A DNA stretch of 64,000 nucleotides from NCBI RefSeq assembly GCF_003991155.1, contig NZ_CP031295.1; one strand, written 5' to 3'. Below are positions 3,480-34,680 of this stretch, in pieces; the first letter of the stretch is position 1; each line of letters opens with the position of its first letter. The translations under genes and the position numbers were made by a program. The DNA is from Escherichia coli. Its GTDB lineage: Bacteria > Pseudomonadota > Gammaproteobacteria > Enterobacterales > Enterobacteriaceae. The notes under the pieces are model-generated. The model did not search any database. It had not been told where the DNA came from and saw only the letters and a program-made list of their open reading frames with translations.

Positions 3480-3612
3480 GGCAACTGGATGAAAACGTAC
3501 GATTTAGGGCACTAAAACCGCTGTTGTCCCACCATTCTGGTGATTCCCAAACGTTATTTGGCTAAAAAGTAGTTTTGATGTGGTTTATTTTCCGAATTCC
3601 AAGCGCAGCCCT
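3480..3612. repeat. Tn3-family-IR-like miniature element (TIME-like), inverted partner at 34524-34680
   Basis: Ends resemble 38-bp Tn21/Tn1721-type IRs (GGG...GAATTCGGAAAATAAACCAC); about 85% identical to reverse complement of 34537-34680. Confidence 0.4.
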
Positions 3613-3657
3613 ACTTTCTTGTGCGTATTTGCGTGTTTTGCGCAGTTTTGAAGTTCC

Positions 3658-4130
3658 GGTGATGCTGCCAACTTACTGATTTAGTGTATGATGGTGTTTT
3701 TGAGGTGCTCCAGTGGCTTCTGTTTCTATCAGCTGTCCCTCCTGTTCAGCTACTGACGGGGTGGTGCGTAACGGCAAAAGCACCGCCGGACATCAGCGCT
3801 ATCTCTGCTCTCACTGCCGTAAAACATGGCAACTGCAGTTCACTTACACCGCTTCTCAACCCGGTACGCACCAGAAAATCATTGATATGGCCATGAATGG
3901 CGTTGGATGCCGGGCAACCGCCCGCATTATGGGCGTTGGCCTCAACACGATTTTCCGCCATTTAAAAAACTCAGGCCGCAGTCGGTAACCTCGCGCATAC
4001 AGCCGGGCAGTGACGTCATCGTCTGCGCGGAAATGGACGAACAGTGGGGATACGTCGGGGCTAAATCGCGCCAGCGCTGGCTGTTTTACGCGTATGACAG
4101 GCTCCGGAAGACGGTTGTTGCGCACGTATT
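3658..4130 (+). mobile_element. IS1, 3'-truncated copy
   Basis: Starts with IS1 IR GGTGATGCTGCCAACTTACTGAT; insA intact, insB cut after ...VVAHV where a Tn3 IR begins. Confidence 0.85.
3713..3988 (+). CDS. insA: IS1 InsA
   Basis: 91 aa [40 protein letters not shown] = IS1 InsA. Confidence 0.85.
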
Positions 4131-4168
4131 GGGGTCTGACGCTCAGTGGAACGAAAACTCACGTTAAG
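4131..4168. repeat. Tn2/Tn3 38-bp terminal inverted repeat
   Basis: GGGGTCTGACGCTCAGTGGAACGAAAACTCACGTTAAG. Confidence 0.85.
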
Positions 4169-4722
4169 CAACGTTTTCTGCCTCTGACGCCTCTTTTAAT
4201 GGTCTCAGATGTCCTTTGGTCACCAGTTCTGCCAGCGTGAAGGAATAATGGCCGAGCATATTGATATGTCCGTGGCAAAGCGGGGAGAGGCGTGCGATAT
4301 CTTCATCATTCAGTGTTTCACCCTGCGCCCGGAGATGATCCAGGGCTGCCTGCATATAAATAGTGTTCCATAACACGACGGCGTTAGTGACCAGCCCCAG
4401 TGCGCCCAGTTGATCTTCCTGACCGTCGGTATATCGTTTTCTTATCTCACCTTTTTGACCGTGACAGATGGCTCTGGCAACGGCATGGCGACTTTCTCCC
4501 CGATTAAGCTGGGTCAGAATGCGCCGGCGGTAATCTTCATCATCAATATAATTAAGCAGATACAGCGTTTTGTTGATGCGCCCCACTTCAATGATTGCCT
4601 GAGTCAGTCCGGAAGGACGTTCACTTTTCAGCAATGAACGGACCAGCACTGAAGCCTGTACTTTGCCCAGCTTCAGGGAGCCAGCGGTCCGGATCATTTC
4701 GTCCCACTGAAGGACTATTTTT
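4164..4722 (-). pseudogene. tnpA: Tn2/Tn3-like transposase tnpA, 3' fragment (5' removed by IS26)
   Basis: C-terminal Tn3 TnpA-like translation ending at the Tn3 IR; N-terminal part replaced by IS26 end sequence. Confidence 0.75.
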
Positions 4723-5542
4723 GGCACTGTTGCAAAGTTAGCGATGAGGCAGCCTTTTGTCTTATTCAAAGGCCTTACATTTCAAAAACTCTGCTTACCA
4801 GGCGCATTTCGCCCAGGGGATCACCATAATAAAATGCTGAGGCCTGGCCTTTGCGTAGTGCACGCATCACCTCAATACCTTTGATGGTGGCGTAAGCCGT
4901 CTTCATGGATTTAAATCCCAGCGTGGCGCCGATTATCCGTTTCAGTTTGCCATGATCGCATTCAATCACGTTGTTCCGGTACTTAATCTGTCGGTGTTCA
5001 ACGTCAGACGGGCACCGGCCTTCGCGTTTGAGCAGAGCAAGCGCGCGACCATAGGCGGGCGCTTTATCCGTGTTGATGAATCGCGGGATCTGCCACTTCT
5101 TCACGTTGTTGAGGATTTTACCCAGAAACCGGTATGCAGCTTTGCTGTTACGACGGGAGGAGAGATAAAAATCGACAGTGCGGCCCCGGCTGTCGACGGC
5201 CCGGTACAGATACGCCCAGCGGCCATTGACCTTCACGTAGGTTTCATCCATGTGCCACGGGCAAAGATCGGAAGGGTTACGCCAGTACCAGCGCAGCCGT
5301 TTTTCCATTTCAGGCGCATAACGCTGAACCCAGCGGTAAATCGTGGAGTGATCGACATTCACTCCGCGTTCAGCCAGCATCTCCTGCAGCTCACGGTAAC
5401 TGATGCCGTATTTGCAGTACCAGCGTACGGCCCACAGAATGATGTCACGCTGAAAATGCCGGCCTTTGAATGGGTTCATGTGCAGCTCCATCAGCAAAAG
5501 GGGATGATAAGTTTATCACCACCGACTATTTGCAACAGTGCC
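4723..5542 (-). mobile_element. IS26 (copy 1, 820 bp)
   Basis: Bounded by 14-bp IRs GGCACTGTTGCAAA / TTTGCAACAGTGCC; intact 234-aa Tnp26. Confidence 0.95.
4775..5479 (-). CDS. tnp26: IS26 transposase Tnp26
   Basis: [34 protein letters not shown]...; IS6 family DDE transposase. Confidence 0.95.
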
Positions 5543-7043
5543 ACTTCGACGACTACCTGCTGCCGGCCGAGAAGTTCGCCGCACTCAAGCGCGAGCAGGC
5601 CCTGCCCCTGGCGATCAACCCGAACAGCGACCAGTACCTGGAAGAGCGTTTGCAGCTGCTGGACGAGCAGTTGGCCACCGTCACCCGCCTGGCCAAGGAC
5701 AACGAGCTGCCCGATGCCATCCTCACCGAGTCAGGGCTGAAAATCACCCCGCTGGATGCGGCGGTGCCGGATCGGGCGCAGGCGCTGATCGACCAAACCA
5801 GCCAGTTACTGCCGCGCATCAAGATCACCGAACTGCTGATGGACGTGGACGACTGGACGGGCTTCAGCCGCCACTTCACCCACTTGAAGGACGGGGCCGA
5901 GGCCAAAGACAGGACGTTGCTGCTGTCCGCAATCCTCGGTGATGCGATCAACCTCGGGCTGACCAAGATGGCCGAGTCGAGCCCCGGCCTGACCTACGCC
6001 AAGCTGTCCTGGCTGCAAGCCTGGCACATCCGCGACGAAACCTATTCGGCGGCCTTGGCCGAGCTGGTCAACCACCAGTATCGCCACGCCTTTGCCGCCC
6101 ACTGGGGCGACGGCACGACCTCATCCTCCGATGGCCAGCGCTTCCGCGCGGGTGGCCGGGGCGAGAGCACCGGGCACGTCAACCAAGTACGGTAGCGAGC
6201 GGGACGGCTGTTCTATACCCATATCTCCGACCAGTACGCGCCGTTCAGCACCCGCGTGGTGAATGTCGGCGTCCGCGATTCCACCTATGTGCTCGACGGC
6301 CTGCTGTACCACGAGTCCGACCTGCGGATCGAGGCACTACACCGACACGGCCGGCTTCACCGATCACGTCTTTGCCCTGATGCACCTGCTAGGCTTCCGC
6401 TTCGCGCCGCGCATCCGCGACCTCGGCGAAACCAAGCTGTACGTGCCGCAGGGCGTGCAAGCTACCCGACGTTGCGCCCGCTGATCGGCGGCACCCTGAA
6501 CATCAAGCACGTGCGTGCCCACTGGGACGACATCCTGCGCGGCCAGCTCGATCAAGCAGGGCACCGTCACCGCCTCGCTGATGCTGCGCAAGCTCGGCAG
6601 CTACCCGCGCCAGAACGGACTGGCCGTGGCCCTGCGCGAGCTGGGCCGGATCGAGCGCACGCTGTTCATCCTGGACTGGCTGCAAAGTGTTGAACTGCGC
6701 CGCCGCGTGCATGCCGGCCTGAACAAAGGTGAGGCGCGCAACTCGCTGGCGAGGCGGTGTTCTTCAACCGCCTTGGGGAAATCAGGATCGGAGCTTCGAG
6801 CAGCAGCGCTACGGCCAGCGGCCTCAACACGGTGACGGCGGCTATCGTGCTGTGGAACACGGGTACACGGAACGCCACCCGGGGTTGGTCGAGGCCGGCA
6901 AGCCGGTGGACGGCGAGCTGCTGCAATTCCTGTCGCCGCTGGGCTGGGAGCACATCAACCTAACCGGCGATTACGTCTGGCGGCAGAGCCGCAGACTGGA
7001 AGACGGGAAGTTTCGGCCCTTACGGATGCCCGGAAAACCTTAG
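5543..7043 (+). pseudogene. tnpA: Tn1721 transposase tnpA, 3' portion (5'-truncated by IS26, several frameshifts)
   Basis: Tn3-family TnpA C-terminal translation split over three frames; ends ...[20 protein letters not shown] next to Tn1721 IR. Confidence 0.8.
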
Positions 7044-33816: not shown

Positions 33817-33833
33817 CACTGCCTTCCTTTTAA

Positions 33834-33990
33834 TTATTTTATGATCTTGTGATTCAACTCATCAACAAATTTATCATCGATAAATGCACCAATAGCACCT
33901 GCAATAACTACGCCAACAAAACCAACAACTGTGGCCGGAAGACCAAAGGCTATAAGGGCCGAGCCTAATGTCAAAGAAAACAAACTAAGA
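33834..33990 (-). pseudogene. cba: probable colicin B (cba) 3' remnant, frameshifted
   Basis: Minus-strand C-terminal peptide ...GAIGAFIDDKFVDELNHKIIK, hydrophobic-hairpin-like, convergent with cbi; no intact long ORF; assignment from gene order. Confidence 0.35.
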
Positions 33991-34173
33991 GCTACAGCAG
34001 CTGGTTACGAACTTAATGGCCAGACTATTTATGTATTGCTCCTGTGGCACACACGAGAAAACAGGTAGATTGTGTGTGGGGACAACTTAACATAGCCTGC
34101 AGATATTAATTCTGGAACATTATTATCAGGCCAGATATTTTGCATTCCATTAAATAATCTTGTAGGAGATAAA

Positions 34174-34455
34174 ATGAATTACGATGAAATAACGAAAATT
34201 ACCGCTGAACGTATTAGCGACTACATGACTGAAGCAGTTAATACAGACTCTATAGCCGTTGCGGAAATGTTTCATAACGCTGCATGGGGAGTGCGAACAT
34301 TGTGGTTTGAACTCGTCACAAAAATAGATATAGATATACATAAAAAGAACAGGTATGCGAGTTATGATCTTAGAAGGAAAATCGAAATGCAGCATGAAGA
34401 GTTTCAGAAAATGACAGAGCGTGAGCAAGTACCTTTATTGAAATCGCCAGAATGA
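34174..34455 (+). CDS. hypothetical protein (93 aa)
   Basis: ORF with GGAG RBS-like sequence; no family recognised. Confidence 0.35.
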
Positions 34456-34523
34456 TGTTCAGCGACTTCGCCCAGGTATTTTCTTTCGCCCCTTTTATGC
34501 CCTGCCGGACATTGTATAAATGT

Positions 34524-34680
34524 AGGGCGGGCCGCTTGGAATTCGGAAAATAAACCACGTTAAGACTATTTTTTAGTCAAATGACTTTCAGGAATCGCCA
34601 GAATGGCGGGACAACAGCGGTTTTGGTGTCCGAAATCGTACAATTCTGAACATCTACGCAAGGGAATGTACGGAAGTAAG
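34524..34680. repeat. Tn3-family-IR-like miniature element (TIME-like), inverted partner of 3480-3612
   Basis: GGGCGGGCCGCTTGGAATTCGGAAAATAAACCACGTTAAG resembles 38-bp Tn21-subgroup IR; subterminal homology to first copy. Confidence 0.4.

Follow-up and report, generated by a model that had tools for sequence, protein, structure and literature searches.

The 64,000-nucleotide stretch of Escherichia coli DNA analysed here (contig NZ_CP031295.1 of assembly GCF_003991155.1, hereafter the window) contains two similar sequences in inverted orientation, one just downstream of pemK and the other next to cvi, with about 31 kb between them. The question raised by this locus is whether the two sequences delimit a unit that was assembled, moved or inverted through them, as an earlier note on the same DNA had proposed, or whether they reached their places by separate routes. 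The evidence presented below favors the second answer. The left element (L) and the right element (R) are most probably independent relics of one transposon lineage of the Tn3 family that were brought together by the merging of two plasmid modules. They appear neither to define, nor to move, nor to invert the intervening 31 kb, and a functional reading of the pair is not supported.

The best local alignment of the two copies joins positions 3497–3617 (plus strand) to 34641–34519 (minus strand), with 105 identities in 123 columns (85.4%) and a longest exact run of 26 bp. Its Smith-Waterman (SW) score is 425, compared with 57 ± 8 for shuffled sequences. The earlier note had described the two regions as about 85% identical reverse complements, and this holds with shifted bounds: pairwise alignment of the window regions detected no homology between the copies in 3480–3496 and 34642–34680. 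The bounds given there also missed the extension of R to position 34810 with a second terminal inverted repeat (IR), and a second IR of another type in L at 3469–3506. As yardsticks for IRs, the window itself supplied the Tn3 IR at 4131–4168 and the Tn1721 IR at 7039–7076, each adjoining tnpA fragments. When all 128,000 38-mers of the window (both strands) were scanned with the Tn1721 IR, the top two non-self matches were precisely the termini in question, at 34527–34564 (25/38) and 3574–3611 (23/38). The resemblance of one terminus on each copy to the 38-bp IRs of Tn21/Tn1721-type transposons was thereby confirmed.

R is a complete non-autonomous miniature element with two IRs, designated IR_a and IR_b, and a resolution site (res) between them (Table 1). 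Both of its ends are Tn3-family IRs of about 38 bp whose tips point outward. The second of these, read on the minus strand from its tip at 34810, begins with GGGGTCCGCTTGGAAAACGG and has a stretch of 21 nt without mismatch to IRs adjoining a 1002-aa Tn3-family transposase (TnpA), while the tip of IR_a departs from the GGGG consensus. The three res subsites are aligned in register with the tnpR–tnpA intergenic res of three autonomous relatives (records L098, L039 and L035) and of the plasmid pAPEC-O2-211A-ColV (L003), and they keep the parental spacing; the SW score against the res region of L003 is 117, compared with 49 ± 7 for shuffles. The half-sites of res site I in the alignment with the autonomous relatives are of the TGTACGAAA/TTTCGGACA type, and the left half of site I in R is degenerate (TGTTCAGAA versus TGTACGAAA). 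Comparison with L098 identified the 27 nt before IR_a in R, and the equivalent 27 nt in L, as a remnant of the 3′ end of tnpA (parent: ...TTGTACAAAAAACAGTCTTAG). Only short spurious open reading frames (ORFs) overlap R (284 bp) and L (143 bp). The neighbors of R are a fragment of an F-backbone ORF (34174–34455) on one side and the cvi promoter on the other, and its flanks, GTAGG and TTATA, show no target duplication. Judged from its sequence, R would hold every cis site required for transposase action at the IRs and for resolvase-mediated cointegrate resolution. Its structure would have arisen by deletion of tnpR, of any cargo and of almost all of tnpA, with both 38-bp IRs and res kept, and R would depend for its movement on TnpA and TnpR from a co-resident relative. 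It has probably been mobile in the past.

L is of a different build. Its left end, of which 3469–3501 is GGGGTTTGAGGGGCAACTGGATGAAAACGTACG, resembles the right IR (IRR) of IS101 of pSC101: BLAST gave 84.8% identity over 33 nt (E = 7e-5) ending exactly at 3501, and the SW score is 147, compared with 55 ± 8 for shuffles. Counted by hand against the IRR sequence in Table S2 of PMC13367494 (Gomi and Yano 2026), the identity is 29/38, and the matching positions comprise the initial 11 nt and, farther in, another block of 11 nt. When the window was scanned with the Tn3 IR, the 38 nt at 3469–3506 ranked second among the non-self matches (23/38). The IR at the other end of L, at 3574–3611, has 31 of 38 positions in common with IR_a of R and 30 of 38 with the IR adjacent to tnpR and res in L003. 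The junction between the two parts lies within a shared GTACG (3497–3501) at the center of res site I, so that L lacks subsites II and III plus half of subsite I. L is thus chimeric, with an IS101/gamma-delta-type IR fused to the distal 115 bp of the R family. It is not a copy of IS101, which is 209 bp long with gamma-delta-type IRs at both ends and its own interior; only 33 nt match, in the IRR. The chimera may have originated by recombination at res site I: the join coincides with the resolvase crossover point, but it is equally explained by the 5-nt microhomology. Everything to the left of the site I center would have been replaced by the IS101/gamma-delta-type IR, leaving a dead chimera, and both relics are probably inert at present. 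The flanks of L (AACAT and TACTT) show no target duplication.

Table 1 Coordinates of the two elements, their parts and the adjoining genes in the window.
Feature	Position	Strand	Remark
pemK	3132–3464	+	R100-type RepFII-pemIK module ends at L
L	3469–3611	+	143-bp chimeric miniature relic; starts 4 nt past the pemK stop codon (3462–3464); two outward IRs of different types
Gamma-delta/IS101-type 38-bp IR of L	3469–3506	+	Tip 3469; homology to IS101 IRR over 3469–3501
Position of res subsite I in L	3486–3511	+	Family homology in right half only (from about 3497); left half overwritten by IS101-type IR
Core common to L and R	3497–3617	+	Half of res site I, about 45 nt, tnpA 3′-end remnant (3557–3583), IR and 6 nt past the tip
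IR_a-type IR of L	3574–3611	-	Tip 3611, toward the 31-kb segment
R	34527–34810	-	Complete 284-bp non-autonomous Tn3-family miniature element: IR_b, res III-II-I, tnpA remnant, IR_a
IR_a of R	34527–34564	+	Tip about 34527, uncertain by 2 nt owing to an indel relative to L
res-like site of R	34627–34730	-	Subsites I 34627–34652, II 34667–34698, III 34708–34730
IR_b of R	34773–34810	-	Tip 34810, facing cvi
cvi	34919–35155	+	Followed by cvaC, truncated by IS1 at 35332

[quoted passage not shown] The earlier assignment of both copies to this class stands structurally for R (284 bp, two IRs, no gene, internal res), a miniature derivative with the build IR, res, tnpA remnant, IR; TIMEs are gene-less and measure 50–500 bp. 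L qualifies only formally, its two outward IRs being of two types, and it is always linked to pemK instead of occurring in multiple contexts.

Relatives of R are widespread. End-to-end homologues of 285–287 bp were found in an IncHI2 plasmid (L004, 73%), a ColE2-type plasmid (L013, 93%) in which the copy sits between two colicin clusters, Citrobacter (L071), an Enterobacterales metagenome-assembled genome (L054) and two Xenorhabdus species (L064 and L095), and the identity among complete copies ranges from 68 to 93%. Together with the ColBM-type plasmids these are unrelated contexts, and the copy in L064 is flanked by a perfect 5-bp duplication, TAAAT. The IR_b/res half of R is present in 2,568 of 72,556 PLSDB records and the L-type core in 3,608 records. 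The commonest R-type form in PLSDB is one truncated about 20 nt past res site I, which is found near parM in IncFII plasmids (about 1,370 records, 90–95% identity).

Autonomous members of the lineage were identified from their IRs. An exact-pattern scan for the IR tip in 100,044 species genomes gave 80 loci, at several of which an ORF of about 1000 aa ends 36 bp from the tip; in the autonomous relatives, 36 bp separate the IR from the stop codon of the 1002-aa TnpA. The ORF of Vibrio furnissii scores 1202 bits on the NCBIfam model NF033527 (Tn3 family transposase), and TnpA at 95% identity or more is encoded on about 315 PLSDB plasmids of Klebsiella, Citrobacter, Enterobacter, E. coli and Salmonella. 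In these transposons, which circulate on Enterobacteriaceae plasmids in the order IR-tnpA-res-tnpR, tnpA and the serine-recombinase gene are divergent, and the roughly 160 bp between them are alignable with the interior of R. The transposon found on a V. furnissii plasmid and on pCIAM-1 of Citrobacter amalonaticus (tnpA WP_021242989, tnpR WP_141227248, sulP-usp cargo) has the IR type of R (GGGGTCCGCTTGGAAAACGG...) and a res architecture in register with that of R, and its tnpA 3′ end corresponds to the 27-nt remnant in L and R. It differs in being autonomous, with the 1002-aa TnpA and a resolvase. It is a relative and not the direct parent, because about 45 nt of the L/R core have no counterpart there.

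An intermediate deletion form, tnpR-res-ΔtnpA-IR, adjoins sitA in L003. This stub (TIME-RES) has the same IR_a, the spacer of about 80 bp and res, and is 82% identical to L over 112 nt; unlike R it keeps the resolvase gene, which encodes a 196-aa serine recombinase, and is without IR_b. The stub is absent from the window, where IS1 lies upstream of sitA. Taken together, L and R would be decayed non-autonomous derivatives of one Tn3-family lineage, whose res has three subsites and lies between divergent tnpA and tnpR genes, the arrangement also seen in Tn3 and gamma-delta. Three other connections were considered and rejected. The IR_b near cvi and the tnpR-res-IR_a near sitA are not the two ends of one large ancestral transposon, as the interior side of IR_b points away from sit and the orientation is therefore wrong. 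A MAFFT alignment of IR_b to the 5′ end of the L003 tnpR was judged spurious. No tnpA remnant accompanies IR_b in the ColV-only plasmid L007, where all three plus frames are filled with stops and the neighboring ORF is an oxidoreductase.

The two elements have separate residences outside the window. In R100, the sequence of window positions 3300–3653 is identical, and L lies between pemK and a DUF262 gene with no R-type copy present. About 2,700 plasmids carry L with 100% conservation. In pF1267-2 (IncFIB), the order cma-cbi-R-cvi-IS1 is the same as in the window, with a single match to the core and no L. The ColV-only plasmid L007 keeps only IR_b plus about 17 bp beside cvi, as in classical ColV plasmids. 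The observation that would speak against the earlier note, namely a single copy in related plasmids with the same gene order, was therefore made twice, for L alone in R100 and for R alone in pF1267-2. Each is a fixed feature of its own module, L closing the R100-type RepFII-pemIK module and R sitting upstream of cvi in ColBM-type virulence plasmids, and the two would have become co-resident once the RepFII-pemIK and ColBM/ColV virulence modules were joined, mostly via IS1/IS26 events. This history, in which L and R are independent relics united by a module merger, is the one that we consider most probable.

Constant linkage to pemK and complete conservation in so many plasmids would also be expected if L were ordinary backbone, or if it acted beyond pemK as a functional RNA or a terminator, with its similarity to R having no transposon origin. 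However, neither an Rfam match nor a terminator-like structure was found for L downstream of pemK, and homology to autonomous Tn3-family transposons is plain in both IR and res. In IncL/M (pOXA-48-type) plasmids, moreover, the pemK homology stops at the stop codon and is followed by umuDC, L being entirely absent. This explanation is already refuted, and its probability is practically nil.

The copies do bracket the DNA between them, as the earlier note stated; this stretch (3612–34526) extends from the IS1/ΔTn3/IS26/Tn1721-tet(A) region through to cmi-cma-cbi. The full content is the IS1/ΔTn3/IS26/Tn1721-tet(A)/IS26 debris, finO, AAA ATPases, vapBC, pifCA, int, cmi-cma-cbi, a cba remnant and the F-backbone ORF fragment. 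Its description as an accessory segment was not borne out, as about half of it is F-type backbone (finO, pifCA).

We examined whether this segment could be a TIME composite (TIME-COMP), with the two miniature elements as its ends and a Tn3-family transposase mobilising it in trans. The general layout is suggestive: a segment containing a resistance gene has an IR-bearing miniature element on either side, the two elements are inversely oriented, their outermost tips (3469 and 34810) point outward, and composites with inverted TIMEs of up to 11.4 kb have been documented in Enterobacteriaceae (PMC13367494). In a composite the outer IRs would form a cognate pair, but those at 3469 (IS101-type) and 34810 (IR_b) are of different types with an identity of 16/38. 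The geometry is wrong as well: the tips of the related IRs, at 3611 and 34527, are turned toward one another over the length of the segment. No 5-bp direct repeats flank 3469–34810 (AACAT versus TTATA), so the search for target duplications that the earlier note had called for was negative for L, for R and for the unit as a whole. Each end is found alone with the same flanks in other plasmids, as described above for R100 and pF1267-2, and the F backbone genes finO and pifCA lie inside. There is also no intact Tn3-family transposase in the 64-kb window, because all of its ORFs are shorter than 800 aa. A search for the cognate resolvase gave no homologue in it either; the single candidate, a 27% tblastn match inside iucC, was spurious. 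The composite is thus effectively refuted, with an exceedingly small probability remaining.

Inversion or assembly of the segment by recombination between the copies, either RecA-dependent or resolvase-mediated at res, was the other mechanism to be weighed. The copies do form inverted repeats some 120 bp long, of which 26 bp match without interruption, such elements often lie at module junctions without duplications, and inversion has been proposed between inversely oriented res-bearing TIME244 copies (PMC13367494). However, L is flanked as in R100 and R as in pF1267-2, and therefore the present arrangement is parental at both loci. Because both keep native flanks on both sides, no crossover between L and R has occurred. 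Nor is either copy a hybrid of the two, L being 100% R100-type over 155 bp and R 100% ColBM-type over 601 bp. The junction predicted for an inversion, pemK-L-(reverse of 34526...34227), was present in 0 of 72,556 PLSDB plasmids when coverage of at least 80% was required. Because it is without res subsites II and III and half of I, L is unable to serve as a resolvase substrate. RecA needs minimal efficient processing segments, and on this basis an identity of 85% with a maximum exact match of 26 bp makes a poor substrate. Recombination between the copies is accordingly very improbable, and the proposal that the segment was assembled, inverted or mobilised via the pair fails on the native flanks at both sides, the mismatched outer IRs and the missing junction.

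Several observations weigh against the merger of two modules with separately acquired relics. No empty site was recovered for either element: when joined flanks were searched, every record with both flanks also had L (743-bp span), and the same was true of R (884-bp span). Target duplications are absent at R itself and at the complete copies of L004, L013 and L071, which are plasmid-borne or from Citrobacter, so that the case for mobility of the family would draw on the variety of contexts and on a single copy from Xenorhabdus. L and R have unusual tip changes in common, as well as 3 nt (TAC) just outside the tip. Because these atypical tip bases and the outer TAC are common to both, there is a hint that L and R descend from one ancestral insertion, and the two could perhaps not have had separate histories. 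A compatible transposase or resolvase could also lie elsewhere on the plasmid, of which the window covers 64 kb, or in the host.

A separate question is whether R by itself is a still-functional portable res/IR module, which transposes, forms cointegrates or swaps plasmid modules with a co-resident relative of the pCIAM-1 type. Copies from different genera, only 68–93% identical to one another, keep the length of 284–287 bp, the two IRs and the full set of three res subsites, and the autonomous relatives reach E. coli among the plasmids counted above. The complete copies without duplications are as expected after res × res exchange between copies, and the breakpoint in L is at the center of site I, the resolvase crossover point. 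On the other side, the IR_a tip is off the GGGG consensus and the left half of site I is degenerate, the site I breakpoint is also explained by the 5-nt microhomology, and the enrichment at junctions is anecdotal and uncounted. The duplication-free complete plasmid copies would fit either res × res or homologous exchange between copies, both unproven. We regard a still-functional R as a tentative and somewhat unlikely reading.

Compared with catalogued elements, R is like IS101 and TIME244 in being short, gene-less, bounded by 38-bp Tn3-family IRs, equipped with an internal res and mostly plasmid-borne (PMC4133298, PMC13367494). Its similarity to IS101, IMU, MITESen1 and TIME244 is at the IRs only (SW scores of 76–179, versus 425–673 within the R family), and because of this R looks like an additional TIME family beside the four of Enterobacteriaceae. 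Its res is of the Tn3/gamma-delta-like type with divergent tnpA and tnpR, whereas that of TIME244 is Tn21-like. TIMEs typically have a 5-bp (rarely 6-bp) duplication and R has none. In comparison with known TIME composites, the locus shares two inverted miniature elements around a resistance gene and differs in its heterologous outer IRs, the lack of direct repeats, ends that are fixed separately elsewhere and an interior that is partly backbone. The R family appears provisionally to be uncatalogued, the comparison having covered IS101, IMU, MITESen1 and TIME244. A bolder form of this view would be that the 284–287-bp IR-res-IR element is an uncatalogued TIME family more widely spread than TIME244, IS101 or IMU, whose res serves as a portable crossover point for the resolvases of relatives exchanging modules. 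We hold this to be unlikely; if true, it would explain why the family recurs at mosaic junctions without duplications, and the L breakpoint at the center of site I.

Other observations concern the immediate surroundings of the two elements. To the right of L, IS1 (from 3654) is truncated at 4133 (480 of 768 bp), where the Tn3 IR of 4131–4168 starts, and a Tn3 tnpA remnant (4164–4769) is cut by IS26 (4715–5542). This nested IS1/Tn3/IS26 debris separates L from the DUF262 gene that adjoins it in R100. On the inner side of R, about 70 bp (34457–34526) lie between the end of the F-backbone ORF homology (pEK499-type, about 34448–34456) and the IR_a tip, and 34471–34524 recurs alone, twice in each record, in small pO157-like, E. 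albertii and Salmonella plasmids.

A group of plasmids has Tn5403 inserted within L; in NZ_CP041640 the insertion at 2102/2103 corresponds to window 3567/3568. The IR of Tn5403 (GGGGTCGGTTCCGG...) is unrelated to that of the L/R family, and Tn5403 was rejected as a parent or mobiliser. In NZ_CP059918, at about 3087, a Tn1721/TnAs1-type element lies exactly at the inner edge of IR_a. Relics of the L/R type thus seem to be repeated targets of Tn3-family insertion. IS4321 and IS5075 are known to prefer Tn21-type 38-bp IRs. IS110-family elements are located in or beside an IR_a-type IR in L003 (3484–4494) and L098 (9088–10092), with IS5075 splitting the IR in the latter, which suggests that IS4321/IS5075 recognise the IR_a-type IR too. 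In pV021-b (NZ_AP014876, about 2452–2540), three Tn3-family IR tips stand in tandem, namely a MITESen1-like IR, a 13-nt partial tip and an R-family IR_b, and the R-type element has the truncation about 20 nt past res site I that is the commonest form in PLSDB. In the contigs of Photorhabdus cinerea DSM 19724 (L018–L029), the family IR tip lies about 105–127 nt inside many contig ends and one stand-alone contig is 252 bp long. This suggests that a high-copy miniature element or transposon of the R-family IR type fragmented the assembly.

Elsewhere in the window, a 1,626-bp cassette at 46076–47701, between sitD and a shiF-like MFS gene, is bounded by 38-bp Tn3-family IRs, of which the left (GGGGGGCGAGGGCCAGTGATGTAAAAAACCACGCTAAG) has 24/38 identity to the Tn3 IR. 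It carries a C-terminal fragment of an enolase gene and crcB, and a 6-bp direct repeat, AAAATT, flanks it (reconstructed target CATAGAG-AAAATT-CTCTCTG). It is a genuine transposed non-autonomous Tn3-family cassette, and none of about 1,000 sit-iuc plasmids has its site empty. An inverted pair of 49 nt at 38430–38478 and 57268–57316 is 82% complementary, each arm being palindromic (CTGTAGTCAG...CTGACTACAG). The partition locus is an ordinary F-type one, with sopA (58663–59838), sopB (59838–60809) and twelve 43-bp repeats (60900–61415) that we take to be sopC. A near-perfect hairpin of 61 nt follows just downstream of the latter (61913–62042).

With regard to the plasmid, the resistance/defence/colicin region is best seen as a mosaic built by IS1 and IS26 between two merged backbone modules, and not as a composite transposon or an invertible segment. 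R is a res-bearing miniature element of the Tn3 family with known autonomous relatives, common on IncF, ColV/ColBM and other Enterobacterales plasmids and absent from the TIMEs recently catalogued in Enterobacteriaceae. Elements of this kind go unannotated, can mislead the analysis of resistance and virulence contexts and may be landmarks of recombination. Adding the R family to annotation resources would be useful, if not conceptually new.

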